Assembly (NCBI GenBank): GCA_001899175.1
Contig: MKVH01000003.1
Coordinates: forward strand, 309,735-373,734
Direction of reading: 5' to 3'
Length of the DNA: 64,000 nt
Source: Candidatus Kapaibacterium thiocyanatum
Lineage (GTDB): Bacteria; Bacteroidota; Ignavibacteria; Kapaibacteriales; Kapaibacteriaceae
The notes below the pieces were generated by a model, which was not told the DNA's origin, made no database searches, and saw only the letters and a program-made list of their open reading frames with translations. Below, one piece after another: positions 7,401 to 64,000 of the stretch. A program made the translations under genes and the position numbers. Each line of letters begins with the position of its first letter. Positions within the stretch are counted from its first letter, which is position 1.

Positions 7401-10400
7401 AGCGTGTACACGTGGAACATCACCGGCACGACCGACCTTACGGGCGTAAGCATCGTATCGGGCGGCTCGACGGCCAGTGCCACGTTCAACACGGGTACCG
7501 TAACGCTGCCCGCTACCTTCGGTACGTTCACCGTCGAAGTGACGGAAACGTTCACGGTAACGAACTGCTCGAAGACGTCCGCTGCCTTCACGGTCACGGT
7601 CTACACGAAGCCCGCTCCGGCTATCACCCGCATCACGGCTGGTGGTGTCCTCGGCGCTGCATGCGTCGGTCAGACGGTCGTCTACGAAACCGCCAACGTC
7701 GCTGGTCATAGCTACAACTGGACGGTTGTCGGCGGCGCCATCACGGGTGGCCAAGGCACGAATCAGATCACGGTCGACTGGAACACGGTCGGCAGTGGTT
7801 CTGTGACGGTTGCCGAATGGGTCACCAGCACGCAATGCACGACGACGGTATCGCAACCCGTAACGGTCGTGAATCCGCCGGCTCCTGTCATCTCCGGTCC
7901 GGTCAATGTCTGCGGCGAAACCACGGCTACGTACTCCACGCCGATGGTCGCAGGCAACACCTACATGTGGACGGTCACGGGTGGCACGCTGACGACGCCG
8001 AACAACACGAACACGATCGGTGTGCAGTTCACGAGCCCGGCTTCGGGTTCCACGACGGCAACGATCGACGTCACGGAAACGAATACGCTGAGCGGTTGCA
8101 TGGCCATGGCCAACATCACGGTCACGGTCTATCGCCAGCCTGTCGTCTCCACGATCGCTCGCACGGATGCCGGCAATGCAAACCAGGCTTGCGTCGGTAC
8201 GTCGATCGAATACACGAGCGGTGCTACCGTCGCCGGCTCCACGTATACGTGGACGGTAACGGGTGGTACGATCACGGCCGGTCAAGGCACGACGACCGTG
8301 ATGGTTCAATGGACCGCCATCGGTAATCAAACGCTGACGCTCGTTGAAGAAACGACCGGTTCCCCGATGTGCGCCGCTACGTCGGTGCTCAACGTCTCGG
8401 TCGAAGATCAACCTGCACCTGCAATCACGGGCCCGAATACGAGCTGCACGGACAACACGGACACCTATTCGGTTGCCGCAGTTGGCGGTCACACGTATGG
8501 CTGGTCGATCGCTCCTGGCGTGAACAACACGGATTGGCAGATCACCACGGGCACGACGTCGGCAACGATGTCCGTCAAGTGGCTCATCGCCGGTACGTAC
8601 ACGATCACGCTGACCGAAAACAACGCTACGGGCAACTGCACGGCTACGACGACGGAAACGGTAACGGTATCGGCAACGCCGAACCCGGTCATCGCCCGCA
8701 TCGCTCCGGCCGGCGCACTTGGCCAGGCTTGCGAAGGTCAAACGATCACCTACAACACGGGTACTTCGGGTAACACGTATGTCTGGACCGTCGTCGGTGG
8801 TAGCATCGTCACCGGTCAAGGCACGAATCAAGTCGACGTCCTCTGGCTGACGGCTGGTAACGGCTCGATCACGGTAACCGAAACGACGACGGGTTCGACC
8901 TGCTCGAAGACGGTTACGCAAAACGTGAACGTCACGCCGCAACCCACGCCTGTCATCACGGGCCCGACGGTATCCTGCATCAACAAGATCCATACGTACA
9001 GCACGCCGGCTATCCCTGGCAACACGTACGCTTGGACGATCACGCCTGGTGTCGGTTCTGTTACGCCGGTCTTCGCTCCGATCGCCGGTTATCCGAACAG
9101 CAACACGATCACCCTTCAATGGATTCAAACGGGTCTCCACAACGTCGCTGTGACGGAAACGTCCATCGCCGGCTGCTCGAAGACCGTATCCATCGATGTC
9201 CAGGTGAATCCGATCCCGACTCCGGTCATCACGTCGACGACGGGCTTCGGCTCGCCGACCTCGCAGCGCCCGGGTCTGGTTTGCGAAAACAGCACGCACG
9301 TCTACACGACGGCCGCAACGCCTGCCAACGTCTACTTCTGGACGGTAACGGGTGGTTCGATCGTCAGCGGTCAGAACACGAACACGATCACGGTTCTGTG
9401 GGCCGGTCCGGGTGCAGGCACGGTGTCTGTCACGGAAACGGTTCCTGGATCGGATTGCATCACGACGGTAACGGAAGACATCGACAAGCGTCCCAAGCCG
9501 ACGCCTGTGATCACCGGCGCTGTTGATCCGTGCGAAAACAGCACGCAGGTCTACACCACGCCGTTCGTTGCCGGCAACACGTACACGTGGACCGTCTCCG
9601 GTCCTGCAGGTACGGTGTGGTCGCCGATCGCTCCGAATCAGATCTCGGTAACGTGGGGTGCTGCAGGTGCAGGCTCCGTCTCGGTTGAAGAGTTCGTTGC
9701 AGGTACGCTTCCGGCAGTCCCGGATCCGGCCGCTTGCGCAACGTCCACGACGCTGAACGTTACGGTTCGTCCGCTCCCGCCGGTTCCGACCATCACGGGT
9801 ACGACGACGGTTTGCGCTACGGACTACACGGACGTTCCGCCGACCATCAACCAGTACACCTATACCTCGAGCAATCCTGGTAGCGTTTCCTTCAACTGGA
9901 CGGTAACGGGTGGTACCATCATCAGCGGCCAAGGCACGTCCACGGTCGTCGTCGAATGGGCCAACGCAACCAACGCTCCCACGACGGGTACGATCACGGT
10001 TCAGCACACCACGATTCCGTGGGGTTGCACCACGCAGACCACGCAAGTGATCACGATCAACCCGCTTCCGAACCCGACGATCTCCGGTCCTCTGTCGGTT
10101 TGCCAGAACTCGATCCAGACGTACAGCACGCCTGGTATCCCTGGTAACTCCTACAACTGGACGGTGAGCGGTGGTAACATCATCCGCGCGGGTCAAACCA
10201 CGCCGAACGTAACGGTCGAGTGGACGCTTCCTGGCGCAGCTACGCTGTGGGTCACGGAAACGAACACGTATGGCTGCACGGCCATCAACCAGATCGACGT
10301 CATGGTGAACTCGCTGCCGAACGTAACGGTCACGCCTAGCGGTCCGACGACGTTCTGCCAAGGTGGAGACGTAACCCTCTCCGCTCCGCTCGGATTCTCC

Positions 10401-11699
10401 TCCTATGTCTGGTCGACGGGTGAAACCTCGCGTAACATCGTTGCCCGCACCACTGGCGATTACTGGGTAGTCGTCACGGATGGCAACGGTTGCTCGAACA
10501 GCTCGGACACCGTTCGCGTCAACGTCTTCCCGTCTTCGCTGCCGATCATCGCCCTCAGTGGTCCGACGTCGTTCTGCGAAGGTGGTAGCGTAACGCTCAC
10601 GGCTCCGAACGGATTCTCCGCTTATCGTTGGTCGACCGGCGAAACGACGCAGTCGATCACGGTTACCACGTCCGGTTCCTATACTGTAACGGTCGCAGAC
10701 GGCAACGCTTGCACGGGTACGTCGACGGAAGTTGATGTCACCGTCTATCCGACGCCGCATCCGGTCCTCGCAGTCATCGGTGCCACGACGGTATGCGACG
10801 GCGACTCCGTCGAAGTCCGCGCTCCCGCCGGTTACTCGCAATACACCTGGATCAGCGCCGCTGGTCATGTCTATGGCACGGGTCGTACGATCTTCGTCAA
10901 GCAGGCAGACACGGTCAAGGTTCAAGTGGTAGACGCCAACGGTTGCACGGGTGAATCCGATGCAGTCGTCATCAACCTCAGCCAGGTCGTTACCCCGGTC
11001 ATCTCCGCCAACGGTCCGACAACCTTCTGCGAAGGCAATGCGGTAACCCTGACGGCACCGGAAGGCTACGCCAACTACATCTGGTCGAACGGCGCTACGT
11101 CGCGCTCGATCACGGTGACGGACGGTGGTCAATACACGGTCATGGTATCGGATAACATGCTTTGCATGGCTGCTTCGGTAGTCACGGAAGTAACGGTTAA
11201 CCCGCTGCCCGCCCGCCCGACCATCACCCGCGTTGGCGACACGCTGAAGGCTGTCTCCGCAGTAGCAGAATCCTATGTGTGGAAGCGGAATGACGAAATC
11301 ATTCCGGGTGCCACCCAGTCCTTCTACGTCGTCAACCAACCGGGTGCATACACTGTCAGCATCGCTGACAACAACACCTGCTCGGCCAGCTCGCAACCCT
11401 TCGACGTCATTCTCACGAATGTCGACGACGATGTAGTGGCAGGTCGTACGGCTGAACTCCATCTCTTCCCGAACCCGACCAATGGTCTGTTCACGATCGA
11501 GACGGAAATCACGCAAGCCGGTCCGGTTCGCATTGAACTTGTCAATGCAGTTGGCGAGCTTGTCATGACGCTCAACGAACAGACGGCTGGCGGTAACTTC
11601 CGCACCACCGTCACGATGGGTGATCTTGCAAGCGGTGTTTACAACGTGGTCGTCACCACGGGTAACCAACGTTGGACTGTACGCCTGGTTCGTCAGTAA
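1446..11699 (+). CDS. Giant (3417 aa) secreted adhesin-like protein with tandem Ig/PKD-like repeats and a T9SS C-terminal sorting domain
   Basis: GGAGGA lies 6 nt upstream of the ATG. N-terminal signal peptide (WLLAMLLSAIVAVGLLPSSVVRAQ). At least 20 units of about 80 aa share C..Y...Y.W.V.GG.I..GQGT..I.V.W...G.G.V.V.E....C. Five C-terminal units of about 75 aa share FC.G..V.L.AP.G...Y.WS.G.T...I.V...G.Y.V.V.D.NGC. The last roughly 80 aa (LHLFPNPTNGLFTIE...GVYNVVVTTGNQRWTVRLVRQ) match the T9SS type-A CTD pattern. Confidence 0.9.
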   Translation: MNRFDSAYPSQRQRKSGSSWLLAMLLSAIVAVGLLPSSVVRAQTLTVTGAPNPQCSGSSVTLTATEAGLPANSGYAAAGLAYAAPVAAGAANNVVLGDDQVSAQQLAAGQVFNFFGTPIDLGVNGFYIGSNGFITFRNDPLATQINPKNLAAPAVGESYNAIYLANTDLSPQAGGQIWWEVQNIGGGNVLVVTFDAVPMYNYQNPGVNDGDVVTVQALLYLQGHPNDGRIEIRVTLISDQDPGAPANQQEYSIGIANNCQPPAAVVGQSQDNPGADVVNAAYNWDPAGPAITVTSVEFFQVGGGSLGVDNTSPYNAVVSSPTAANVDYYAVATLSNCTTVQAPDYQVTWIQSPTASLPVGNANVCSGTGNSYSFTQTVPGSTFQWSVPGLTAGVDYTITPNATSSPVTITFNPSAASIGGTPQTIRVVETGPGVPACVGPNNDLPVTVYLTPSGPITGGTTPICAPATGSSATAPFTAPAGTGYAWSFNPALPASVAPYVTINTPSASSTTVTLTSGFTQAASLSPVATTLQVVVTTGAGVTCTYTTTTSITFNPAPITRTMTSVPTSICPNQNITFSLDGGATANNIAWSFSGVPGSIIGSAGGPGQTSAVINFTAAGTATVNALETTGAGCTRTHTQTFTVNPLPTPTVAVASPVCQYVAPVAGNPSYQTNPNPLQYVYTVTGAPADGYRWQVTNGIIVAVNGVPGAYANPYPSAGTFTTGAMQITVQWTAPGAGVLQVWEQNVTTGCVGTNTYNLTVNPTPTAANMSLTGPGISAANPCANSTGNVYTFNTAAADNSSFTITGGTITAAPDPGGVVTGGGTGATYTAAATGTLQVTWGAGTSGSISHEYSNAGGCSAIEVYTITIEPLPSFLVSGPTAACGGSSIAFSVSGLTNGGVPAYAWSLTANPGGLATMVGAGNGPSESFNLTNPITATSGPYTVQLQVTNTVTGCSNTNTANFTIVRTPAAPVIGGTGTDRCDADVVAAGTYTITAEAGMAWTVTVTNGLFNGTSATATGVGTGAPQNLPSVTWTNNTPAPIVGSFSATQSNTFGSTTCTSPAGTANENINPRPMAVGTTPSGTPYVDYNPPAPFCQTQTPLPTITINNAEAGIDYYWLASMDIDFGSGFGINVGPSNNVTVAGWNAGSVVYGIQAVNPVTGCMRVSIITITVNPAPNTTFTGNFGPVCPNGETVATYNPNIADEKYYVTSPIVVGSNYNWTVTNGYIVAYSDNGATVTNTMPLSTTSQITTWSGNYGAETAPFVVVRWTGPNPGKIKVTEIRQGGAGCSFTTPDFPVIINPSVIPTVYSLGFGASPTPATLPDMCAGASPLVELSGSEVGYSYTLEISADGGTTWGASTALAQAGTGAVITNWAIPAADLPYTGSMGSITTYLVRTVVNPNGSCPGYLASNNITINVHPNPDVKTVTATTVLFCEGQPIPVDVASTDAWITYTLERRSLPGGVFASTGVSAAGNGGTLTLVDNTSPAGSGPLTAAPNYEYQVVATTTSLPSCSAVMNGNPQVTVFAPITPQVVTVTPAAVCWNNDATTLTVANTQDGVEYEVYWGGGMTPFVPTKLQQITTPTGAINFAISQADILQIQATNPGAPVNVTLTVQGRLFVDGVTITRPIPVGGCEVTVGTTMLTINPEPTAAIVPPTSPICGGDVENYSPVGSSAAYTYEWSISNAPLGTTPLAAMPSGPGTVDPFTVTWGPNDLACNGVNSPITATIQLVQVDVVTGCDDTTTVDVVINSAVHDGDIEGDATACIYGGYEQHVEDYDVYRTTCGTGTNTTWPAGTTFLWTMPTSPTGPTGVIRSGQGTRHIAAEWNTTAGTGIAPVTVLVTLPWGCATTVTKNVTVYSLPTPNVTGPATVCQNQMGVIYTSTLIAGDNYLWEVVGGTIVGGTGAGTNASPSVLAGLGLNTITIDWLDMPNPTATIKLTETSVQGCIAVNTYTVDVTPTPTPVVTGPTTACDNTNIVLSTQNNAPNSVYTWNITGTTDLTGVSIVSGGSTASATFNTGTVTLPATFGTFTVEVTETFTVTNCSKTSAAFTVTVYTKPAPAITRITAGGVLGAACVGQTVVYETANVAGHSYNWTVVGGAITGGQGTNQITVDWNTVGSGSVTVAEWVTSTQCTTTVSQPVTVVNPPAPVISGPVNVCGETTATYSTPMVAGNTYMWTVTGGTLTTPNNTNTIGVQFTSPASGSTTATIDVTETNTLSGCMAMANITVTVYRQPVVSTIARTDAGNANQACVGTSIEYTSGATVAGSTYTWTVTGGTITAGQGTTTVMVQWTAIGNQTLTLVEETTGSPMCAATSVLNVSVEDQPAPAITGPNTSCTDNTDTYSVAAVGGHTYGWSIAPGVNNTDWQITTGTTSATMSVKWLIAGTYTITLTENNATGNCTATTTETVTVSATPNPVIARIAPAGALGQACEGQTITYNTGTSGNTYVWTVVGGSIVTGQGTNQVDVLWLTAGNGSITVTETTTGSTCSKTVTQNVNVTPQPTPVITGPTVSCINKIHTYSTPAIPGNTYAWTITPGVGSVTPVFAPIAGYPNSNTITLQWIQTGLHNVAVTETSIAGCSKTVSIDVQVNPIPTPVITSTTGFGSPTSQRPGLVCENSTHVYTTAATPANVYFWTVTGGSIVSGQNTNTITVLWAGPGAGTVSVTETVPGSDCITTVTEDIDKRPKPTPVITGAVDPCENSTQVYTTPFVAGNTYTWTVSGPAGTVWSPIAPNQISVTWGAAGAGSVSVEEFVAGTLPAVPDPAACATSTTLNVTVRPLPPVPTITGTTTVCATDYTDVPPTINQYTYTSSNPGSVSFNWTVTGGTIISGQGTSTVVVEWANATNAPTTGTITVQHTTIPWGCTTQTTQVITINPLPNPTISGPLSVCQNSIQTYSTPGIPGNSYNWTVSGGNIIRAGQTTPNVTVEWTLPGAATLWVTETNTYGCTAINQIDVMVNSLPNVTVTPSGPTTFCQGGDVTLSAPLGFSSYVWSTGETSRNIVARTTGDYWVVVTDGNGCSNSSDTVRVNVFPSSLPIIALSGPTSFCEGGSVTLTAPNGFSAYRWSTGETTQSITVTTSGSYTVTVADGNACTGTSTEVDVTVYPTPHPVLAVIGATTVCDGDSVEVRAPAGYSQYTWISAAGHVYGTGRTIFVKQADTVKVQVVDANGCTGESDAVVINLSQVVTPVISANGPTTFCEGNAVTLTAPEGYANYIWSNGATSRSITVTDGGQYTVMVSDNMLCMAASVVTEVTVNPLPARPTITRVGDTLKAVSAVAESYVWKRNDEIIPGATQSFYVVNQPGAYTVSIADNNTCSASSQPFDVILTNVDDDVVAGRTAELHLFPNPTNGLFTIETEITQAGPVRIELVNAVGELVMTLNEQTAGGNFRTTVTMGDLASGVYNVVVTTGNQRWTVRLVRQ

Positions 11700-11724
11700 T
11701 CCTGACGTCCGGCAGATGAATGAA

Positions 11725-11753
11725 GGGCGCACCTCGGTGCGCCCTTTTTTTTT
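11725..11753 (+). terminator. Rho-independent terminator after the giant adhesin gene
   Basis: Perfect 8-bp GC stem gggcgcac / gtgcgccc with loop ctcg, followed by a run of 9 T, starting 26 nt after the TAA stop. Confidence 0.85.
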
Positions 11754-52976: not shown

Positions 52977-53784
52977 ATGAATGGAAGTCTTCGGTCGACA
53001 CGTCGTAGCGTGGACGGGGGGCGGATATTCAATGGAACGGAGAATGCACTGGCCGATCAGGTTCGTAGTTCTCTCGAGATCCGGACAGACGAATTCCGGG
53101 GCATTGACCGGAGCTTCCGTGATATACGTCGGAGAATCGAGTCGCTCGGAATCCTGGTCGTCAGACATACTGCGTGAATCGAGACGCCTTCCGGGGTCTC
53201 TCGGTTCCAGGAGGACAATATCCTGCGATAGCGGTCAACAACAAGGAGTATTCGACCGAGTTCAAGCTGTATACGTTGTTGCATGAACTCGTACATGTTC
53301 TCCAGCATGACGCAACAACCATCAGTGCATCGACCTCCATGGATACAGCGAATGAAGCTGCCGTCGAACGTATCGCCGGCGATGTTCTTCTTCCCGCCAC
53401 CGATCTGAACAAGCTACTGCGAGTTACCACTCCAGGAAAGCTGATGGATGATACCGATCACTTGCGATCGATATCCGGGACCTGGGATTTACCCCAAAGG
53501 GATTGATGACGAGGTTATTGGCGCTGAAGACAATATCGGATCGAGAGTATGATGCATGACTACGTGGATGGAGCGCCCGCAATGCGGGTTTGCCCCAACG
53601 CAAGGTTCCAGGGCAACCGGACCCTGTCTATCTGGCACTGAACAAGAATTCGGGAATGGTCATCCGTCGTGTGGTGCGGGCATATCATCGTAAAGCCTTG
53701 AGTCTGACCGATGCGCTCACGGCTATCGGTGTCAGAGCCAACAACTTTGGCGAATTGATCGAGAACGTCTATCAGGAGTCGTGA
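52977..53784 (+). pseudogene. ImmA/IrrE-family (DUF955) metallopeptidase gene, decayed (two frameshifts plus an in-frame TGA)
   Basis: Fragment 1, 52977..53177, ends ...RRIESLGILVV. Fragment 2 is in another frame, 53174..53506, and carries PAIAVNN......LYTLLHELVHVL (HEXXH at 53282-53296) and AAVERIAGDVLLP. Fragment 3 is in a third frame from about 53479 to 53784 and has TGA at 53557-53559. Lower GC than the neighbours. Confidence 0.65.
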
Positions 53785-54270
53785 ATGGCCGACCGTCATT
53801 ACGTTCTGGATACCAATGTGCTTATCGACTGGTAGAGCGAGAACTATCCTCCCGGTGTCTTCCCTTCGGTATAGGCCAGACTGGAGGAAATGGTCGTACA
53901 TAATCGTATCCATGTCATTCACCATGTCTGGGAAGAGGTCCGCAGAATCGGCGATGCGGAACTGTGTTCCTAGTGTGAGAGCAGTAAGAACTCGATGTAT
54001 CGAGACTCCAGAGGTATGAACCTGTTGCGGATGGCTGACCGTATTCGCAAGGATTGTTCGAGTCTGGTCGACCACGATCCACGAGCAGCCGATCCTTTCC
54101 TCATAGCATATGCGATGGATACGGGTAGCGTGCTCGTCACTCACGAAACGGAAGCAGCCGGCAAATCGAACCGCCGACGCGCGCACTATATACCCGGCGT
54201 CTGTAATGAGAAGAACGGAACGTGGATGCGCTTCATCACCGTGATGAAGCACGAGTGCTGGATCATATGA
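53785..54270 (+). pseudogene. DUF4411 (PIN-like) family gene with three in-frame TAG codons
   Basis: One continuous frame: MADRHYVLDTNVLIDW*SENYPPGVFPSV*ARLEEM...DAELCS*CESS...ADPFLIAYAMDTGSVLVTHE......IPGVC. It matches the DUF4411 pattern as I recall it (LLD.NV.I.....YYP.D.FP.FW.WL, ADP.LIA.A......VVT.E.....KIP.VC). TAGs at 53833-53835, 53872-53874 and 53971-53973. The ATG directly follows the ImmA-like TGA. Confidence 0.7.
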
Positions 54271-54676
54271 TGCGGGCGATCATTCAGGTCGACCTGATGC
54301 CTGTATATTCCCTTGCACGACGAAGACCTGCTTCTCCTCACCGAGGCGGGTATTCGAACCCTGTCCAGGCCCCATCCTTCCCCGTCTCCCCATAAATCCC
54401 TATCTTCCGCCATGTCCTTGCGGCACCTCCATATCGAACCGCGACTGCTGGGCGAGGCCAACCGCCGCCTGCACGGCCGCGTCATACGGTGCGAAGTGCG
54501 CCTCTTCGGCGCCATGCATACGCAGCGAACGTGACCTCCCTCCTCCCGGCCGAACGCCAATAACCCTAACTTTGCAGAATCGAATGCCGATGGCGGCGTC
54601 CCTTCCGGGACATCGCCGTCGCTTCCGCGCCGTTCCATGGCGTGTACCGACGTGACATTCAACACAAGAGACCATC

Positions 54677-56602
54677 ATGATCAAGATCACCCTGCCCAAC
54701 GGTGACGTCCGGGAGTATGCATCCGGCACTACCGGGATGGACATCGCCAAGAGTATTTCGGACGGCCTGGCACGCGTCGCCCTCGGCATCTTCGTCGACG
54801 GCGTACCGTACGACCTGTCGCGTCCCATCGTGGCCGATGCCGCCATCCGTATCGTGACGTTCGACAATGACGAAGGCCGCGAGATCTTCTGGCACTCCAC
54901 GGCCCACCTCATGGCCGAGGCGCTGGAAGGACTCTACCCTGGCGTGAAGTTCGGCATTGGACCACCCATCGAGAACGGATTCTACTACGACGTCGATCTG
55001 CCCGGTGATACGAAGCTGAGCGTCGAGGATCTTCCCGCCATCGAAGCGCGCATGCTCGAACTCGCCAGGCGCGACGTTCCGTATCGACGCGAAGAGGTGA
55101 CGTGGGACGATGCCGTGGCCTACTTCAACGAAAAGGGCGACGAATACAAGCTCGAACTGCTCGACGGGCTGAAGGGCCAGCAGGTCACCTTCTACCGACA
55201 GGGTGACTTCACCGATCTCTGTCGCGGTACGCATGTGCCGTCGACGGGCTTCATCAAGTATCCCAAGCTGCTGTCCGTTGCCGGTGCCTACTGGCGTGGC
55301 GACGAGAAGCGCAAGGTGCTCACGCGCATCTACGGCATCTCCTTCCCGAAGAAGCAGCAACTGGAAGAGTATCTCACGCAACGAGAGGAAGCGGAACGCC
55401 GTGACCATCGCAAGCTCGGCCGCGAGCTGGAGATCTACATGATCAACCCGATGATCGGCGGTGGCCTTCCCGTATGGCTGCCCAACGGCACGCTCATCCG
55501 TCGCCGGCTGGAAGCCTTCCTGCGCGAGGAACAGCTCAAGCGCGGATATCAGGAAGTGATCACGCCCCACATCGGTAACCTGGAATTGTACAAGACGTCC
55601 GGACACTATCCGTACTACGCCGAGTCGCAGTTCGCTCCGATCCAGGTGGAAGAGGAGCAGTACATGCTCAAGCCCATGAACTGTCCGCATCACCACCAGA
55701 TCTTCTCGTCGAAGCCGCGTTCCTATCGCGACCTTCCCGTCCGTATCGCCGAGTTCGGCACGGTCTATCGATACGAACAGTCGGGTGAGCTCAACGGTCT
55801 CTCCCGCGTACGCGGATTCACGCAGGACGATGCCCACATCTATTGCACGCACGATCAGTTGAAGGACGAGATCAAGAGCGTCGTCGAACTCACGCAGTTC
55901 GTGTTCAGCACCTTCGGTATGGACGTGACGACGCGCCTGTCCTTCCGTGACGACAACGCGGACAAGTACGGTGGCGACCTCGCACTGTGGGAAGTCTCGC
56001 AACGCGAGATCAAGGAGGCCGCCGACGAGATGGGGCTCGATTACTTCATCGGTGAAGGCGAAGCCGCCTTCTATGGACCGAAGATCGACTTCATCGTCCG
56101 CGACGCCATCGGCCGCAAGTGGCAGCTCGGTACGGTGCAGGTGGACTACGTCATGCCTGAACGATTCCAGCTCGAATACACCGGCGCCGATAACGCCAAG
56201 CATCGTCCGGTCATCATCCATCGTGCACCGTTCGGATCGATGGAGCGATTCATCTCCATTCTCATCGAGCACTATGCGGGCAACTTCCCGTTCTGGCTCG
56301 CACCGGTCCAGGTAAGCATCCTGCCCATCGCCGATGCGCACCATACGTATGCATCCGATCTCGCGGCCGAACTGGAAGCGATGGGCCTGCGTGTCCATCT
56401 CGACGTGAGGAACGAGAAGATCAATCGCAAGGTCGCCGAGAGCGAACAGAAGAAGGTGCCCTTCGCCCTCGTCGTCGGTGGCAAGGAAATCGAGAACGAT
56501 GCCGCCAGTGTGCGCAAGCATGGCGAAGGCGACAAGGGACAGATGAAGATCGCCGATATCAAGGCACTGTTCCGTGCGCTCAACGTACCCGGTGCGGAAT
56601 AA
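54677..56602 (+). CDS. thrS: Threonine--tRNA ligase
   Basis: TGS domain start MIKITLPNGDVREY. Editing-domain HSTAHLMA. Class II motifs (FRHE-like YRYEQSGELNGLSRVRGFTQDDAHIY; GEAAFYGPKIDF; HRAPFGSMERF). Anticodon-binding C-terminus. Confidence 0.98.
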   Translation: MIKITLPNGDVREYASGTTGMDIAKSISDGLARVALGIFVDGVPYDLSRPIVADAAIRIVTFDNDEGREIFWHSTAHLMAEALEGLYPGVKFGIGPPIENGFYYDVDLPGDTKLSVEDLPAIEARMLELARRDVPYRREEVTWDDAVAYFNEKGDEYKLELLDGLKGQQVTFYRQGDFTDLCRGTHVPSTGFIKYPKLLSVAGAYWRGDEKRKVLTRIYGISFPKKQQLEEYLTQREEAERRDHRKLGRELEIYMINPMIGGGLPVWLPNGTLIRRRLEAFLREEQLKRGYQEVITPHIGNLELYKTSGHYPYYAESQFAPIQVEEEQYMLKPMNCPHHHQIFSSKPRSYRDLPVRIAEFGTVYRYEQSGELNGLSRVRGFTQDDAHIYCTHDQLKDEIKSVVELTQFVFSTFGMDVTTRLSFRDDNADKYGGDLALWEVSQREIKEAADEMGLDYFIGEGEAAFYGPKIDFIVRDAIGRKWQLGTVQVDYVMPERFQLEYTGADNAKHRPVIIHRAPFGSMERFISILIEHYAGNFPFWLAPVQVSILPIADAHHTYASDLAAELEAMGLRVHLDVRNEKINRKVAESEQKKVPFALVVGGKEIENDAASVRKHGEGDKGQMKIADIKALFRALNVPGAE

Positions 56603-56605
56603 TCG

Positions 56606-58210
56606 ATGGGGCCGATGCCGAAGCCGCCGATGATCGATCGAGGACTACGGTCGACGTACGGGATGGTCACCATGATCGTCCTGTACGTCGTCCTGTTCTG
56701 CAGCGGTCTCGCCGCCGCACCGGCGGAGGAGATCCGCGTCTCACGGTCGTCGCCGCGCAACACCATCTATACTTTCCTGCGCACGCAGGCCGAGGACGTC
56801 CAGCGCCCGGACCTCGCGGCGCGTACGCTCAACGGCAGGGGATTCGGTGCCGATGAACTGACGAAGCGTGCCGGGCAGCTCAAGACGTTTCTCGATGTAC
56901 GAGGCCTCTTCGTCGATCTCGAGTCCGTGCCCAACGATCCCAACTACAAGGATAGTGCCACGGATCAGAATATCTATCGTCCGTTCATCGACGAACCACG
57001 CATCACCCTCGAGCGTGTCGGAAGCGAATGGTACATGAGCCGCCGCACGGTAGCCAGTGTTCCCGATCTCTATGCCGAGATCTATCCGTTCGGACTCGAC
57101 CGTTTCGTCGCTCTCTTCCCCATGCAGGGAACGCGTATTCTCGGTCTGTACGTCTGGCAGCACATAGGTCTCGCCATCATCCTCATCCTGGGCTTCATCA
57201 TCGGACGCGTCATCGCCGCCATCACCATGCGCCTGTTGAAGCGGTTCACGCGGGCATGGAAGCTGCCGGAGGAATCGGTGGACATCCTGAAGTCGGCCGC
57301 GAAGCCTTTCTCGCTGATGGTCGCGATCTGCTTCTTCAGTCTGTTGCTGCCGCTGCTCAGGCTCCCTGCCGACATCTCCCACTGGGGCGTCATCATCATC
57401 CGTGCCCTGCTGCCGTTCTTCGGCATCGTCACGGTCTACCGTCTCGTCGACATCGTGGCGCTGCGTGCGGAGCAGCTCGCACAGCGGACGCAGAGCACGC
57501 TGGACGACCAGCTCGTGCCGTTGTTCCGCAAGGCGCTGAAGTTCTTCGTCATCCTCGTCGGTCTTATCTTCATCTTCCAGAATCTCAACTTCGACATCAC
57601 GGCCTTGCTCGCCGGCGTTTCCATCGGTGGTGTGGCCCTCGCTTTCGCGTCGCAGGATACCATCAAGAACGTCTTCGGTTCGGTGATGATCTTCGCCGAT
57701 CGTCCGTTCACCATCGGCGACTGGATTTCCGTGACCGGCGCCGAAGGCGTCGTGGAGGAAGTCGGCTTCCGCAGCACGCGCATACGGACGTTCGCCAACA
57801 GCCTCGTGTCGATTCCGAACGGCCGTCTCGCCGACATGACGATCGACAACATGGGGCTTCGCGTCTATCGACGTTACAAGACCACGCTCGGTATCAACTA
57901 CTCCACGTCGCCGGAGAAGCTGCAGGCCTTCGTCGATGGCGTCAAGCGCATCATGGCCGACCATCCTCACACGGTCAAGGAACCGGGCAAGATGATCGCC
58001 GGCTTCTCGGACTTCGATGCATCGTCGTTGAACGTCACCGTTTCCATGTTCTTCGATGCCGCCGACTACGAAGCGGAACTCACCTATCGTGAACAGGTCA
58101 ACATGGCCATGCTCAGGCTTGCCGCCGAACTCGGCGTGACGTATGCCTATCCTTCACGCACGGTCTATGTCGAATCGATGCCGACTACGCAGTCAATCGC
58201 GAATAGATGA
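56606..58210 (+). CDS. Mechanosensitive ion channel (MscS family) with N-terminal extension
   Basis: Several TM helices followed by the MscS core SQDTIKNVFGSVMIFADRPFTIGDWISVTGAEGVVEEVGFRSTRIRTFANSLVSIPNGRL. Exact start uncertain. Confidence 0.9.
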   Translation: MGPMPKPPMIDRGLRSTYGMVTMIVLYVVLFCSGLAAAPAEEIRVSRSSPRNTIYTFLRTQAEDVQRPDLAARTLNGRGFGADELTKRAGQLKTFLDVRGLFVDLESVPNDPNYKDSATDQNIYRPFIDEPRITLERVGSEWYMSRRTVASVPDLYAEIYPFGLDRFVALFPMQGTRILGLYVWQHIGLAIILILGFIIGRVIAAITMRLLKRFTRAWKLPEESVDILKSAAKPFSLMVAICFFSLLLPLLRLPADISHWGVIIIRALLPFFGIVTVYRLVDIVALRAEQLAQRTQSTLDDQLVPLFRKALKFFVILVGLIFIFQNLNFDITALLAGVSIGGVALAFASQDTIKNVFGSVMIFADRPFTIGDWISVTGAEGVVEEVGFRSTRIRTFANSLVSIPNGRLADMTIDNMGLRVYRRYKTTLGINYSTSPEKLQAFVDGVKRIMADHPHTVKEPGKMIAGFSDFDASSLNVTVSMFFDAADYEAELTYREQVNMAMLRLAAELGVTYAYPSRTVYVESMPTTQSIANR

Positions 58211-58756
58211 GCATATAGTTATTCTTTATGAATGAGTGTATCTCATTGATGAAGCTGGATTATCCACGACATGATGAAATAATGTAGCATCATATGTCGA
58301 TATCGATGATGGAGTATTGATCGACTTTGTCATATCTTCGCGCTGTGTATTGAACGAGAGCATGACGACGAATGAAAGGACTCCGAACGATTGTCACGAT
58401 GTTCGGACGACGATACGACAGATCGATAGCAGGGAGCGGCGATGGAGATCATGTGCTTCGACATGATGACCGCTCATGACGATGCTTGACGACGATGTGA
58501 ATTCGACGATTCGATAACCAGGACACTCCTTCAGGATTTGCGACCGGGACCGACCTCCCGTAACCACGCGACACGACCGACATGATTCTTCCGGCATACA
58601 CCACGAACACGTGGGATCCGGACATCCGAGTGTGGAACGAGTACCAGAGCCGGCTTGCAGGCCGGACGACGAGCGGAACGAGGCCGGCAGTGCGGTGCGG
58701 CCTGTACGACGATCCTTGCGTCCGATGGACCTGACCAGTCCGACGATGCAGGACAT

Positions 58757-58767
58757 CCCCCCCCCCC
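58757..58767. repeat. Homopolymeric C11 (G11 on the minus strand) tract in a non-coding region
   Basis: Read directly: ...gacat ccccccccccc gatatt.... It lies 383 nt upstream of ATG 59150. Confidence 0.95.
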
Positions 58768-59149
58768 GATATTCCGACGTAGGCCATGACTGCATACGAT
58801 CCGAATACGTTGTAGCGCTTCAGGACACGTGAACATCGCCGTTTCACTTCGGATCGTGTTCACACGACGAACGTGCGGAGAGCCGCCATCGTTCACGACC
58901 GCAATGCGGATCGATGTGCGGCATGAAACCAGGACGACCTTCGGGAAAGGTCTCCATACTACATCGACATAGCGTGCGATACGGTCCGATATCACTGGCC
59001 TATCGCCCGTCGACCGGTCCGTGCGGCCAGCAGATAGTGTCCGTACATCATACCATCATCCGGCCTGCACAACTCCATGTGCGGTCAGGACTCCTTCCTG
59101 TGCCGATGCGACCGTATACCCTTTCGAGTACAATGATTGTGCGTGGATC

Positions 59150-62100
59150 ATGAAGCATCACATCCTTGCCCTGTTCGCGGTACTGCTGGCCGTTCCGTTG
59201 CACGAAGCGCATGCCCAGCTTCAACCGCAGCCGAGCGTCGATCCCTTCACCGGGGCCTTCCAGTGCGCTATCCCGGTCATGACCGTGCCGGGTCCGCACG
59301 GCAGCAGCTATACCATCACGCTCAACTACAGCAGCGAAGTGCGCGCCGAGGAGGAAGCGTCGTGGGTTGGATACGGGTGGACGCTCGAGGCGCCGGCCGT
59401 CTATCGCATGCGCAAAGGGCTTCCGGACGATATGAAGGAGCGTACCGTGCTCTATCACGACAAGGGAACGATCAACATGAGTTCGTTGTCCCTGCGTGGT
59501 GGCGGTGAAATACTCAGCTTCAACAACAGTTTCGTCAGCTCCTTCGGTTTGGGTGGTACGTTCATGGTATCGTGTAATTCCATGACCGGCTTCGATGCTG
59601 TCACGGGCATAGCTCCGAATGTCGGCATCAGTCTCCCGAACGGGCTCAACCTCGGTATCGGCCTATCCTACGACACGAAGGGACGGTTCGGCCTGGGTAT
59701 GGGAATGGGCCAGAAGTCGAGGACAGGAGGGCCTTCCACATCCATCTTCGGTATTTCGATGTTCAGCTACGATCCTCAGTCGCGGCAGAGTCCGAACGCC
59801 GGCATGCAGCGTCCCTTCAGCGGTGAGAACGATATCTCGGAACTGTCGTTCCGGCTCGGCTTCTACGAAGCGGCGGGAACCTTCACCACGTCGACCATCA
59901 CCTTCGTCGATCAGACGAAGACGGCCAACGGCTATCTCTACGTTCCCGATGCCATGACGCCGGGTCGGCCCGACATCATGATGGACTATCTCGTCGAACG
60001 TGAACACAACGTCTCTCGCGACGACCCGAGCACGCTACCGATACCGTTGCCTGCCAACGACGAATTCCTCGTGAGCGCTCCCGGTTTCGGCGGGAAGTTC
60101 CGCGCCCACCACGCTCTTCCACTCGGTCTCCGTCCTTCCGTGCAGACGTCGTCGATCGACGTTCGTTCGCTCAGCATCAAGGGTGTCGCCGGGGTCAACT
60201 ACGGGGCCGGTCTCGGCGGCATCGTACCGTTTCCCGCGACGCATACGATGCAGACGAGTGGCCTGGGTACGGAATGGAATCTCAACGGCGAGACGGCGGA
60301 ATGGCTCGCCCAGCGACGTATGCAGCCGTTCTTCCGGTACGTCGACGATCCTGCCGACGAAGTGCGGTATTCGTCGACGGACGGCAGCCTCGTGCCCGGT
60401 TTCGACGGTCTGTCGAAGTCGGCCTATCATCCGGTAAACAGAGGGCGCCTGCCACGTATGAATCGATCCGTCGAGTACCGTACGGCGGGCGATCTCAGGA
60501 ATCTCTACGGTATCGCAACGGGCAACAATATCCTGCGGCGTAGTATCGAAGCCCGCTTCAGGGGAACGAACTATACGATCGAGAGCATGCCTCCCGAAGT
60601 GATCATGGATTTCACCGTGACCAACGAAGACGGATCCATGATCGACTTCAATACGGCGCTGTACTGTTTCAACGAGAAGTCGACAACCTACACGAAACTC
60701 GACAAGGGGCTGAATGTACTCCGCCCTGCGACACGTGTGTTCTATTCAACGGTGCCATACAAGGAAGGTGATGCCAGCGACGTAAGTACGCGCGAGATGT
60801 CCCATCCCTATGTTCATACGTGGTATGCGACGGCCATGTACAGTCCCGACTATGTCGACGTCAATGACAACGGACCCGATGACGCCGATGCAGGAGGATG
60901 GACGACGTTCGGCTATACGGACCGGATGACACGCCGGTGGCGATCGCCTTATAACGGATACTGGATCGACAGACAGGACGTGGACGACAACGTCGACGAC
61001 GTTCTGAGTTTCGCCACGGGCCGCCAGCAACAGACGTTCCTGACGAGAGTGGAAACGGCTACTCACGTAGCCTACTTCTATACGAACAAGGATATTCCGC
61101 CGACGTCCGGGCCGGTGCAGCGCCTGGATGGCTATGAACCCGCCGCCGATGGCAGCGAAGCGAACGTGCCATCTCCACGCCCGATGGTGAACGACGTTCC
61201 GTACCTTTCGCAAATCGTCCTCTACAAGAAGAATGGCGCCAATCCGCCGATCAAGCTGCAGACGGTCCACTTCAGCTACGACTATTCCGTGGCGCCCGGC
61301 AATCCGTCGTCGGCGTCGTATGGCGGAACGCACGTCGGCAAGCTCACGCTGCGACGCATCTGGACCGAAGGTCGCGACGTTAAGGAGTCGTCCATCGCTC
61401 CCGTCGACTTCTACTACAACTATCCGACGGCAGGAACGGGCGCGGGCACGACGACGAAGGACGAGATCAACGTCGGTCCGCTTACGGCGCGATACGGTGC
61501 GAGCGTATCGTTCCCGTCTCCCGTCACCGAGAATCCGACCTTCAATGCCAACAACGTCGATGCATGGGGATATCAGACCGGTATACGACCGGCTGACGAT
61601 CCCGGTAATCCCGTCATGGAGATGCAGCGCTTCGCGCCGCCGCAATACTGGCAGACCGCTGGCGACCCCGGTACCTATCGCCTGAAGACGATCAAGATGC
61701 CGACGGGCAATCGTATCGTGCCCATCTACGAGCGTCGTACCTATGCCTGGGTGCAGGACAAGCCGGCCATGTCACTGGTACCGTTGACGCAGTATGCAGG
61801 AGATATCAGCCGACGGAACAAGACGGGACCGAGTGCGCAGGAGAATGCCTTCACCGTGGCGGTACAGCAGGTTGGACTCGACCCTGCCGACGCCACCGGA
61901 ATCGATCGCTACGTGGCCAATCTGAAGAGTCGCTTCGTGGACAACGGCGAACCGATGTATTTCCGCTTCGCCTACGATCGTAACCTTTGCGACGATGCGA
62001 CCCAGCCACTGGATCAGTTCTACGTACGCGGCTACGGCAAGGTCGTGTCCTGCTCGCTCGTGACGGTGACCGGAGGGCAGAAGGCCATACGTCTTACCAT

Positions 62101-64000
62101 CGGTGCGATGGACGACAGCAACTTCGGGACGTCGACCATGTCCACACTCCAGGAGGCCCAGTATAACTCGCCCTATGGAGTGGTGATCAAGTACTGGAAG
62201 ACCTTCCTGCAAGGGAAATGTCAATGCGACGACGGCGATGCCTACGACCCGATGGGTCTAATGATCAAGTTCGGTCTGCTGCCCGGCTGGATGTTCAATC
62301 AGATCGTTTCCATCCCGACGTCGAGTCTCGCCCGCATCGTGCCCATACGGTCCGTGCTCAAGTTGCCACTGGCCGGTGTCAAGGCCGGAGGTGGTGCCCG
62401 TGTCGCACGTCTCCTCACGATCTCTCCCGACGGTACACAGGAAGCAGGTGACGCCTCCGCGCTCGGTACGGAGTACATCTACGGCGACCGCACTGGCACT
62501 GTGGAAAAGGAATCATGGGGTGTGGCCACGAACGAGCCCGATATCATGCGCGAGGAGAATGCCGTCGTCGGCATCGACACCGAATACTGGCACAGGGCCG
62601 CCAACGAAATCCTCGACGATGCCTTGCTGGCGAAGATGGAAGGTCCAATCGGCTACAGTCTGCTGCCCGGCGCATCGGTAGGATATTCGAAGATCGTCAT
62701 GCGTCCGCTCAACAGGCAGGTCAACACGGCCGGCTACGCGATCATGAAGTACGCCACGGTCAGGGATGTACCGACGGTGGTCGCGACGAAGACCACGGCC
62801 AGCGTCCTTCCCAATGACTATCACCCGCTGTCGGTGCCGATGTTCCAGCGATCGAAGATGGACGTCGGTATCAGACAGGGTTTTGCCATCAAGCTGCGTC
62901 AGCATCACGGTCTGCTGCTTTCGTCCGAACGGTACAGCGGCGTCCATGAATCGGCGGAAACGCAACGTCTCGTCTCGTCGACGCAGTACGATTACACGAT
63001 GCCTGGCGATCTCATCGACTACTTCAATACCGAAGACCATACCCTGCGTGCACGGGCCGGTCTCGACCATCAGGACCTCATGACGGAGTCGCGCCTCTTC
63101 ACCGAGAAGCTCGACATGTTCCGTGGCGACTTCACGATCGAGATCAATCCCGCCGCACCCGTCTTCCCGCTCACGGGCCTCGGCTTCCTGTACAACGGTG
63201 TGAACCATTCACTGAAGACGTATGTCGCGACGAATATCCAGCGTCAGACGCCGGTCGTGCGCAGAACGATATCGATGGTGGACGGACGCCGCGATACGTC
63301 GGAAATCATGGCCTATGATATCCGTACGGGCCTCCCGGCGATTACGCGACGAACGGATTCCTATCAGGGAACGTCGGCGACGGGTTCGGTACCGGCAGGT
63401 AACCACAATAGTTCCATCACCGCGGTAACGACTCCGGCGCTGGCCGTCTATCCTGACGTAGGACAGCGTGCGGAGCTCTATCGGCAAGTATTCAAGAGTA
63501 GCAGCAATCATCCGGTATACGGTGTGGTGACTGCGGACGTCGTATCGCCCACGGCACTGAAGCTTACCCGTAGCGTCGGAACGATCAACGACGGCAGAAC
63601 CGACTCGCTGATGAACCTGTTCAGGATAGGCGATGAGTTCGCCATCTATCAGGGTACGACCTTGCAAGCCATCGTTGCCTCCACTGGCATACCGGTTCTG
63701 GCAACAGGTTCCATCACCATTCCGGTCAGGGCCAAGGTCGGTACGCTGGCTACGACGACGAATGTAGAAGTCGTCGTGCTGCGTTCCGGACGCAAGAACT
63801 TCATCATGGCCCAGGCCGCATCAACCGCATACTACGGCCTGGATCTCGCGCCCGCCGTCACGCGAAGCAGGGCATTGTATGGGCTTGAACGCAATCTCAA
63901 CGCCTTCAACGACTTCGTGCGTGATGGCTCCGGGGCGGTGAGCCGGACGTACGTGAACTATCTGCGATTCGATAACGGTAGCGCATCGTTCGACGTCACG
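59150..64000 (+). CDS. Very large secreted protein, 3'-truncated by the window edge (over 1617 aa seen), with an SpvB/Tc-toxin-B-like N-terminal motif
   Basis: Hand translation of + frame 2 from ATG 59150 to nt 64000 found no stop codon. The ORF is absent from the supplied track, and every track ORF in this span is in another frame or antisense. Signal peptide MKHHILALFAVLLAVPLHEAHA. Then DPFTGAFQCAIPVMTVPGPHGSSYTITLNYSS.......SWVGYGWTLEAPAVYRMRKGLPDD. Confidence applies to coding status; the family call is weaker. Confidence 0.85.
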   Translation, partial: MKHHILALFAVLLAVPLHEAHAQLQPQPSVDPFTGAFQCAIPVMTVPGPHGSSYTITLNYSSEVRAEEEASWVGYGWTLEAPAVYRMRKGLPDDMKERTVLYHDKGTINMSSLSLRGGGEILSFNNSFVSSFGLGGTFMVSCNSMTGFDAVTGIAPNVGISLPNGLNLGIGLSYDTKGRFGLGMGMGQKSRTGGPSTSIFGISMFSYDPQSRQSPNAGMQRPFSGENDISELSFRLGFYEAAGTFTTSTITFVDQTKTANGYLYVPDAMTPGRPDIMMDYLVEREHNVSRDDPSTLPIPLPANDEFLVSAPGFGGKFRAHHALPLGLRPSVQTSSIDVRSLSIKGVAGVNYGAGLGGIVPFPATHTMQTSGLGTEWNLNGETAEWLAQRRMQPFFRYVDDPADEVRYSSTDGSLVPGFDGLSKSAYHPVNRGRLPRMNRSVEYRTAGDLRNLYGIATGNNILRRSIEARFRGTNYTIESMPPEVIMDFTVTNEDGSMIDFNTALYCFNEKSTTYTKLDKGLNVLRPATRVFYSTVPYKEGDASDVSTREMSHPYVHTWYATAMYSPDYVDVNDNGPDDADAGGWTTFGYTDRMTRRWRSPYNGYWIDRQDVDDNVDDVLSFATGRQQQTFLTRVETATHVAYFYTNKDIPPTSGPVQRLDGYEPAADGSEANVPSPRPMVNDVPYLSQIVLYKKNGANPPIKLQTVHFSYDYSVAPGNPSSASYGGTHVGKLTLRRIWTEGRDVKESSIAPVDFYYNYPTAGTGAGTTTKDEINVGPLTARYGASVSFPSPVTENPTFNANNVDAWGYQTGIRPADDPGNPVMEMQRFAPPQYWQTAGDPGTYRLKTIKMPTGNRIVPIYERRTYAWVQDKPAMSLVPLTQYAGDISRRNKTGPSAQENAFTVAVQQVGLDPADATGIDRYVANLKSRFVDNGEPMYFRFAYDRNLCDDATQPLDQFYVRGYGKVVSCSLVTVTGGQKAIRLTIGAMDDSNFGTSTMSTLQEAQYNSPYGVVIKYWKTFLQGKCQCDDGDAYDPMGLMIKFGLLPGWMFNQIVSIPTSSLARIVPIRSVLKLPLAGVKAGGGARVARLLTISPDGTQEAGDASALGTEYIYGDRTGTVEKESWGVATNEPDIMREENAVVGIDTEYWHRAANEILDDALLAKMEGPIGYSLLPGASVGYSKIVMRPLNRQVNTAGYAIMKYATVRDVPTVVATKTTASVLPNDYHPLSVPMFQRSKMDVGIRQGFAIKLRQHHGLLLSSERYSGVHESAETQRLVSSTQYDYTMPGDLIDYFNTEDHTLRARAGLDHQDLMTESRLFTEKLDMFRGDFTIEINPAAPVFPLTGLGFLYNGVNHSLKTYVATNIQRQTPVVRRTISMVDGRRDTSEIMAYDIRTGLPAITRRTDSYQGTSATGSVPAGNHNSSITAVTTPALAVYPDVGQRAELYRQVFKSSSNHPVYGVVTADVVSPTALKLTRSVGTINDGRTDSLMNLFRIGDEFAIYQGTTLQAIVASTGIPVLATGSITIPVRAKVGTLATTTNVEVVVLRSGRKNFIMAQAASTAYYGLDLAPAVTRSRALYGLERNLNAFNDFVRDGSGAVSRTYVNYLRFDNGSASFDVT

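Follow-up and report, generated by a model that had tools for sequence, protein, structure and literature searches.

Rhs and Tc cocoons provide a general means of packaging and delivering toxic enzymes. The SpvB segment forms cocoon wall in the solved Tc toxins (4O9X, 4IGL), Rhs proteins of type VI secretion systems (T6SS) build a complete cocoon from one chain (7Q97, 7PQ5), and SGS1 and the teneurins are eukaryotic YD-shell proteins derived from bacterial toxins. Polymorphic toxins of a 'TcdB/TcaC pathway', with Bacteroidetes among the hosts, were inferred by comparative genomics (Zhang et al. 2012). SpvB-TcdB-Rhs proteins occur in Apibacter, where the rhs genes neighbour those of proteins with sorting domains of the type IX secretion system (T9SS), and T9SS was only guessed at as the route (Steele et al. 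2021). In a census of Tc toxins that used TcdB_mid and Rhs-core domains as its screen, TcC was almost confined to Proteobacteria and Firmicutes. The gene considered here, gene A, begins at position 59150 of a 64,000-nt stretch of the Candidatus Kapaibacterium thiocyanatum genome (contig MKVH01000003.1; this whole stretch is the window) and runs off its end.

Gene A encodes, as predicted from its sequence, the N-terminal 1617 residues of a Sec-exported protein of ~2115 aa. The product is interpreted here, with a probability of roughly 55%, as a shell protein of TcB type that partners an antibacterial Rhs toxin of TcC type, the product of a downstream gene C, in a Sec-dependent cassette that lacks TcA. 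The features of gene A in the window are the following.

59150–64000, + strand: 5' part of gene A, residues 1–1617 of a putative secreted Rhs/TcB-like shell protein of ~2115 aa (open frame, identity to the sister-strain protein P0001, AlphaFold2 (AF2) models with Foldseek).
59150–59215, + strand: predicted Sec-type signal peptide, MKHHILALFAVLLAVPLHEAHA/Q with the slash at the cleavage site, without lipobox (read from the sequence; h-region count in the family).
59240–59464, + strand: SpvB/TcB-type opening, residues 31–105, with the family-invariant ASWVGYGW...R...G.PDD (Pfam SpvB; invariant columns).
59465–59900, + strand: Gly/Ser-rich, poorly conserved segment, ~residues 106–250, modelled with low confidence (predicted local distance difference test, pLDDT; family consensus).
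60800–61760, + strand: most conserved core of the family, ~residues 551–870, with degenerate YD-like β-hairpin motifs (invariant columns, AF2).
62380–64000, + strand: second conserved shell block, ~residues 1078–1617, then long β-hairpins (invariant columns, AF2 model 2 with Foldseek).

Gene A and its predicted shell protein

Retranslation of window 59150–64000 (+) gave 1617 codons and zero stops, as had been read in an earlier note made from the letters of the window. The chance of zero stops in 1617 random codons is ~2e-24 at the local GC content of 59%. Gene A begins at the same ATG as its called counterpart in a sister strain (assembly GCA_039810545.1), whose protein P0001 (2115 aa) shares 98.3% identity with the gene A product over residues 1–1618, with 26 mismatches and 1 gap; no frameshift separates the two over the available length of gene A. 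The open reading frame (ORF) leaves the window inside the gene, ~498 residues lying beyond the end, and as judged by this alignment the window holds about three-quarters of gene A (residues 1–1617 of ~2115). The extension past the window suggested in the earlier note was made via the sister strain only, in which A is complete at 2115 aa and its downstream neighbours were read.

The length of the ORF alone is weak evidence here, because the same GC-rich window includes a 2658-aa open frame at 3756–11732 (-), antisense to another ORF. Such very long antisense ORFs would favour reading gene A, too, as a chance open frame or a pseudogene of GC-rich DNA. This explanation was ruled out by the homology and structure results, namely at least 3715 homologous cluster representatives, 98% conservation in the sister strain without a frameshift, and confident AF2 models. 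Thus, the homology (98.3% identity in the sister strain and thousands of homologs) establishes gene A as a real gene.

The cleavage motif AHA/Q occupies residues 20–23, where a clean Sec signal peptide cut after AHA had been noticed earlier, and a hydrophobic h-region is present in 135 of 148 members of the A family; an internal control segment shows one in 2 of 148. A lipobox was sought in the N-termini of the family and none was found.

The resemblance of residues 31–83 to the opening of SpvB/TcB proteins, also taken from the earlier note, was borne out at threshold level. Pfam SpvB (PF03534, 287 positions) matches residues 32–104 with its profile positions 2–71, and the model is left unmatched beyond position 73. 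A scan of the whole protein gives 15.9 bits, short of the cut-off of 22, and a scan restricted to the first 100 aa gives 22.3 bits (E 8.5e-5). Among 36 N-termini of the family, 19 match SpvB (E<0.01) and 10 match DUF6531, which is an Rhs N-terminal domain. In the Gly/Ser-rich segment that follows, with the family consensus NNYxGxG...G...SLG, pLDDT falls below 50 at model residues 100–108, 136–148, and 156–196.

The conserved core includes the motifs PDYVD..DGP..DD.GG.TKF.Y, KTVHF.YDYS, GKLTL..W.E, and LK.I.LPSGG.I.V.YE..DY.YVQD, with invariant or near-invariant columns at D571-P601, D617-D661, L687-Y757, and D805-Q870, and is predicted to form long β-hairpins at high pLDDT. The second block has the motifs K.GGG.RV.RLL, YG.EY.Y, SSGVA..EP..REEN, and EGP.G.S.LP..SVGYS, with invariant columns at K1079-R1085, G1107-E1137, and P1174-P1209. 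All motifs quoted in the earlier note were located at their places in the gene A product: PYLSQIVLYKK at 684, VHFSYDYS at 706, GKLTLRRIWTEG at 730, YRLKTIKMPTGNRIVPIYE at 843, GTEYIYGD at 1106, and STQYDYT at 1277.

The TcdB_mid, FG-GAP, RHS_repeat, and Rhs-core models did not reach threshold in the profile searches. FG-GAP and other propeller families of Pfam are unmatched in the window protein up to E 1, and in 22 family members up to E 0.01, the AF2 models not having been inspected domain by domain. TcdB_toxin_midN and midC had no match in the window protein or the 22 members, and RHS_repeat (PF05593, TIGR01643) had none in the window protein and one weak match (E 0.009) among the 22. The canonical YD..GR or Y.YD..G[RN] motif is absent from A and present in its neighbour C; the A-family consensus has YD-like hairpins, two in number, nowhere but at its very C-terminal end. 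Neither the Rhs core TIGR03696 nor any toxin family matched A, and Ig and PKD families of Pfam had no match in the window protein. The motif and Pfam scans thus confirm the earlier reading that canonical YD repeats, FG-GAP repeats, and Ig/PKD repeats are lacking, and the suggestion of a divergent or new branch agrees with the sub-threshold TcdB_mid, FG-GAP, RHS_repeat, and Rhs-core results in an unnamed family. By these criteria of sequence A lacks an Rhs core plug and a toxin domain. The C-terminal hypervariable toxin domain that the earlier note suggested looking for is not on A; in the sister strain and in 67 of 69 related loci, toxin and Rhs core are on the downstream gene C.

No T9SS C-terminal sorting domain (TIGR04183, type A; TIGR04131, type B) was found in A, and full-length P0001 has no NCBIfam match of any kind. 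A 3417-aa ORF at window 1446–11699 (+) has a T9SS type A tail (TIGR04183, 34 bits). Since this ORF carries the TIGR04183 tail, the host is of the T9SS-bearing Bacteroidota type, and the model is able to detect this domain in this host.

Beyond the window, the C-terminal end of A consists of a CBM-like (carbohydrate-binding-module-like) domain, the YD-like hairpins, and a variable disordered tail. The CBM-like jelly-roll is weakly similar to CIP1 (E 0.004 by PDB profile search), CBM_4_9 matches in one family member, and some relatives add PA14 or PKD modules. An antibody chain, rejected as spurious, and the CIP1 jelly-roll were the sole sequence or profile matches of A in the PDB.

AF2 models were built with family alignments for window residues 23–1200 (model 1; pLDDT 74.3, predicted template-modelling score (pTM) 0.75) and for residues 1080–2115 of P0001 (model 2; pLDDT 73.0, pTM 0.71), and both consist mostly of long β-hairpins. 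Foldseek searches of the PDB with model 1 gave only five matches at E<=1e-3, namely TcdB2-TccC3 (5.8e-8), three YenB chains, and SGS1; below these were weak matches to secretin, LptD, and TonB-dependent barrels (E 0.005–0.4, probabilities 0.01–0.3). Model 2 gave 16 matches at E<=1e-3, nearly all of them YD/Rhs cocoons: SGS1 (1.7e-7, probability 0.99), TcdB2-TccC3 (1.8e-6), YenB, RhsA, Rhs proteins of S. bongori and Photorhabdus, and teneurins, with CDTb as one outlier. The strand-turn-strand appearance that had suggested SpvB-mid/Rhs shell sequence is therefore matched by the models, the top Foldseek matches of both being Tc, Rhs, or teneurin cocoons. As modelled, A is built almost entirely of Rhs/YD-type β-hairpin shell.

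Sequence search revealed 47 homologs of A, of 1600–2500 aa and all unnamed, and profile search at least 447. In an exhaustive phmmer search against 1.84 billion cluster representatives, 3715 passed a threshold of E<=1e-3, while E<=1e-10 was reached by 2761 and E<=1e-30 by 798; family size is counted in clusters at 50% identity, of which there are at least 3700. As shown by a scan of one genome per species, at least 503 species carry the gene. The carriers are almost all Bacteroidota and include the culturable Chitinophaga, Mucilaginibacter, Pedobacter, Flavobacterium, and Niastella, as well as Hymenobacter, Fluviicola, Tenacibaculum, Ekhidna, Dawidia, and Kapaibacterium; a few metagenome-assembled genomes labelled outside Bacteroidota may be mis-binned. 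Identities between very divergent lineages are 20–40%. The family has no functional annotation or name and is absent from Pfam and NCBIfam, and neither it nor DUF6443 was found described in the literature on DUF6443 and on Rhs/SpvB/Tc-like systems of Bacteroidota.

Genes B and C and the proposed function of the cassette

The surroundings of A homologs were compared at 85 loci (L-numbers), L001 being that of the sister strain, which is colinear with window 53019–64000 at 95% DNA identity. The order in L001 is A, a gene for a 264-aa Cys-rich secreted protein that overlaps the stop codon of A, gene C (2748 aa), and a 99-aa ORF. Sequence downstream of A extends for 3 kb or more in 69 loci, and 67 of these have a C-type Rhs ORF there in the orientation of A. 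Gene C starts a median of 800 nt after A, the gaps clustering at 680–870 nt; the two genes overlap in L004 and are joined directly in a few loci. The identities of A and C covary across loci. Two small genes of L001 are listed here.

L001 16345–17139, + strand: Cys-rich 264-aa secreted protein in the slot between A and C (no match to the B-family profile, Pfam or NCBIfam).
L001 25402–25701, + strand: 99-aa ORF missed by the gene caller, 4 nt after the stop of C (candidate immunity gene by position).

The C protein of L001 has a signal peptide, a weak DUF6443 match, canonical YD repeats, and an Rhs core (TIGR03696, 35.2 bits; cut-off 32.5), and it ends in a TreTu_C domain. The core motif is kept in 10 of 11 complete C proteins. 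A profile of the conserved Rhs region (~745 positions) matches SGS1 (2e-32), RhsP (3e-25), and YenC2 (8e-10), the core being aligned to the end of YenC2, and on these sequence grounds C is a genuine Rhs shell and core toxin protein. The tails after the core comprise 142–348 aa and are similar in only 1 of 55 pairs; such unrelated tails after a conserved Rhs core mark C as a polymorphic toxin. The tail in L001 is TreTu_C (98 bits in Pfam; PDB 7zhl, 4e-10), TreTu being an antibacterial ADP-ribosyltransferase of EF-Tu from a Salmonella Rhs toxin (PMC9825190), and the L002 locus carries Amidase_2. The identifiable cargo of C, as assigned from these domains, is antibacterial and not insecticidal.

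Between A and C, 59 of 72 loci encode a secreted protein of ~245 aa, B, recognised by an iteratively built hidden Markov model (HMM). In L001 B may have been replaced by the Cys-rich protein or may have diverged beyond recognition. The B-family proteins, the Cys-rich protein of L001, and the small ORFs after C, that of 99 aa in L001 included, all lack a Pfam or PDB match; a DUF7660 gene lies further downstream of the 99-aa ORF. Sec-type signals are predicted in 51 of 53 B and 62 of 63 C proteins, as in 135 of 148 A proteins and 2 of 148 in the control window. In the five loci for which Pfam annotation was precomputed (L001–L005), no gene within 10 kb belongs to a TcA/VRP1-type Pfam family. Of the downstream genes that the earlier note thought worth looking for, therefore, a toxin (C) and a candidate immunity gene (the 99-aa ORF of L001) were found, and a TcA partner within 10 kb in the five loci was not.

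That A and C are neighbours with the same direction in 67 of 69 loci, although the lineages are very divergent, argues for a joint function of the two proteins. In the proposed mechanism, A would take the role of TcB and form part of a β-cocoon that is completed by C. The latter would take the role of TcC, its Rhs shell leading into an autoproteolytic Rhs core and then a hypervariable toxin, with the small candidate immunity gene after it, and B would help in assembly or act as an adaptor. A, B, and C would all leave via Sec, and the A-C complex would carry the antibacterial toxin to competitors. The target may be bound by the N-terminal region of C with DUF6443 and by those modules (CBM-like, PA14, or PKD) that lie towards the C-terminal end of A, and no TcA injector would be involved.

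Several observations weigh against this interpretation. Physical binding of A to C, or one cocoon shared by them, is a step that we infer. The profile of the A family is in register with TcdB2 residues 12–57, but not significantly (E ~1), and PDB sequence and profile searches with A, including one with the full-length family profile, returned no TcB or Rhs protein. Foldseek template-modelling scores (TM-scores) are 0.05–0.14 with very large root-mean-square deviations for both models. Hence, the structural match appears to be one of local structure and fold class (Rhs/YD β-cocoon wall), not of superposable architecture, and the overall cocoon geometry cannot be judged from split models. The downstream genes of the window's own A were read from a 95%-identical strain, as the window ends inside A. 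Ten other C-terminal regions of C have no Pfam match, so that toxin identity comes from two loci. C has 600–1900 further N-terminal residues beyond the Rhs shell, the fold of which was not recognised: a profile of the N-terminal ~1500 residues found no match in the PDB, and Pfam recognised only DUF6443. The ~745 positions of the C shell may or may not be too short for a lone cocoon, and the repeat alignments of C to known Rhs proteins are out of register, so the argument from shell length is not established. Lastly, some loci lack B, and in the lineage of the window the slot holds the unrelated Cys-rich protein, so B is not constant.

Three other functions of A were considered. An export or translocation device, a giant periplasmic or outer-membrane-associated β protein that moves C across the outer membrane of the producer, would resemble the TcdB/TcaC export route, which combines a signal peptide and an SpvB domain and has Bacteroidetes among its hosts (Zhang et al. 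2012). It would also fit the tight genomic coupling of A and C, and both proteins have Sec signals and no T9SS C-terminal domain, so that some other outer-membrane step is needed. The weak secretin, LptD, and TonB-dependent barrel matches of model 1 point the same way, but they lie below the Tc matches, and the significant matches are soluble cocoon shells and not membrane barrels. Moreover, the SpvB segment in solved Tc toxins is cocoon wall, not channel, and the CBM-like, PA14, or PKD modules of some A members fit extracellular binding. An export device is thus considered unlikely. To about the same degree it is doubtful that A is a stand-alone surface or secreted YD shell, an adhesin or scaffold like the teneurins or SGS1, with co-regulation or shared mobility as its sole tie to the Rhs gene. 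The C-terminal half has SGS1 as its best structural match, teneurins match too, and the CBM-like jelly-roll, the CBM_4_9 match in one member, the PA14 or PKD additions, and a length of ~2100 aa, enough for a large shell alone, are all consistent with such a protein. However, 67 of 69 loci keep A and C side by side and in one direction at 20–40% identity, the genes often overlapping or closely spaced, and A lacks the plug or core and the enclosed C-terminal cargo that self-contained YD shells have.

The SpvB-type N-terminus, the TcB chains as top structural matches, and the TcC-like Rhs gene downstream would also suit a TcB subunit that belongs to an insecticidal ABC (Tc) toxin of the canonical kind. 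Against it are the lack of TcdB_toxin_midN/midC and of an FG-GAP propeller in the window protein and 22 members, the lack of a TcA-type gene within 10 kb in five loci, the Sec signal peptides of A and C, the antibacterial nature of the identifiable cargo (TreTu acting on EF-Tu; amidase), and the near restriction of TcC to Proteobacteria and Firmicutes in the Tc census. This possibility is largely refuted and is given very little weight. The earlier proposal of a Tc-toxin/Rhs-like secreted protein consequently stands in its TcB-like shell and falls in its insecticidal connotation, the identifiable toxins being antibacterial.

With A as TcB-like partner of C, it may be asked whether the A-B-C cassette is a distinct and largely Bacteroidota-specific delivery system for polymorphic toxins, in which a Sec-exported two-chain Tc-like BC cocoon is assembled with the help of B dispenses with TcA, T6SS, and a recognisable T9SS signal, and delivers antibacterial toxins by a route not yet described. 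This broader proposal is put forward tentatively, as a possibility with somewhat less than even odds.

Upstream region and accessory genes

The sequence ahead of gene A has one feature.

58211–59149, + strand: non-coding leader of 939 nt that separates gene A from the MscS gene (no gene called there in L001).

The leader includes an 11-C run at 58757–58767, where the 95%-identical L001 has CCTTC, and a 13-nt indel (GACGATGCTTGAC) distinguishes L001 from the window ~280 nt further upstream of this run. It may be an artefact of assembly, or else a phase-variable tract prone to slippage could be present here. A search of the window, leader included, against Rfam gave no RNA family, and a scan of the + strand of the leader gave no convincing sigma-70 promoter or terminator.

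Synteny with L001 breaks at window ~53019, upstream of which L001 has genes for a 1100-aa PKD/Ig_7 protein, an intact M78-peptidase-like protein, and a DUF4411/PIN protein. At 52–54 kb the window sequence is different from that of L001, with a dip in GC content to 0.57.

In L002, which belongs to the clade nearest to the window's own, a 766-aa FG-GAP β-propeller protein (FG-GAP_3, E 4e-13) is encoded at 7673–9973 (+), 27 nt upstream of A, and may be a split-off equivalent of the internal propeller of canonical TcB. L003 (585–9983) and L005 (4627–10004), from Chitinophagaceae and Sphingobacteriaceae, share co-directional upstream genes for proteins of 838/1005, 358/365, and 139/166 aa, which may be lineage-specific accessory components. 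The ~360-aa protein among them is found in 25 of 85 loci and shows a weak likeness to Ig-like 'surface anchored proteins' (PDB 4mkm, E 0.001). Both the L002 FG-GAP protein and the L003/L005 genes were rejected as core components, being lineage-specific and absent from the window.

T9SS cargo genes (Por_Secre_tail or CHU_C) adjoin the A-C cassettes in L004 (22347–25799), L002 (26471–26729), and L003 (26228–26525), which echoes the situation in Apibacter and may or may not exceed the background density of such genes in Bacteroidota.

Comparison with known toxin systems

If the proposed function is true, the strict coupling of the A family to a polymorphic Rhs toxin would offer a genetically tractable split Tc-like capsule without a TcA injector, and a family of thousands of members would have escaped Pfam, NCBIfam, and the Tc/Rhs censuses. 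Tc toxins are already being engineered for protein delivery, and such a capsule could then provide a new scaffold for similar work. With ten C-terminal regions that have no Pfam match, gene C may also be a large reservoir of new toxin and immunity domains.

Among described proteins, the TcB subunits (Photorhabdus TcdB2, Yersinia YenB) resemble A in an opening segment of SpvB type, which A matches in part, and in a long β-hairpin Rhs-like shell, as modelled for A, without a toxin of its own; they share with it a gene position just upstream of a TcC-like gene with Rhs core and hypervariable region. In contrast to TcB, A has no FG-GAP β-propeller, no TcdB_mid domains, and no TcA partner within 10 kb in five loci. 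It is ~600 residues longer, begins with a Sec signal peptide, and has a C-terminal CBM-like module and degenerate YD hairpins, the cargo of C is antibacterial, and the full-length sequence profile of the A family shows no similarity to TcB.

The single-chain SpvB-TcdB-Rhs toxins are likewise found in Bacteroidota, begin like A with a signal peptide ahead of an SpvB-type N-terminus, and are, as A is, associated with Rhs repeats and polymorphic antibacterial toxins. However, in these proteins SpvB and an integrin-like propeller and/or TcdB domains are fused to the Rhs toxin, whereas A is encoded by a separate gene without propeller or TcdB domains, C has its own signal and a DUF6443 region, and a third small gene usually lies between the two.

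With the T6SS Rhs effectors (RhsA, RhsP, Tse15, Rhs1/TreTu), C has in common an Rhs shell and core and, in L001, the TreTu domain of Salmonella Rhs1. Unlike them, it carries no PAAR, VgrG or clade domain, is predicted to be Sec-exported, and is always paired with a separate A shell. Mosquito SGS1 and the teneurins resemble A, as modelled, in being large YD/Rhs shells with modules of carbohydrate-binding type, and SGS1 is the best structural match of the C-terminal half of A as well as the best sequence match of the Rhs region of C. They are eukaryotic single polypeptides that enclose their own C-terminal domain, whereas the bacterial cassette has a separate toxin partner. Taken by analogy with these systems, the A cassette would be a split, highly divergent capsule of the Tc/Rhs type that is widespread in Bacteroidota and does without TcA.

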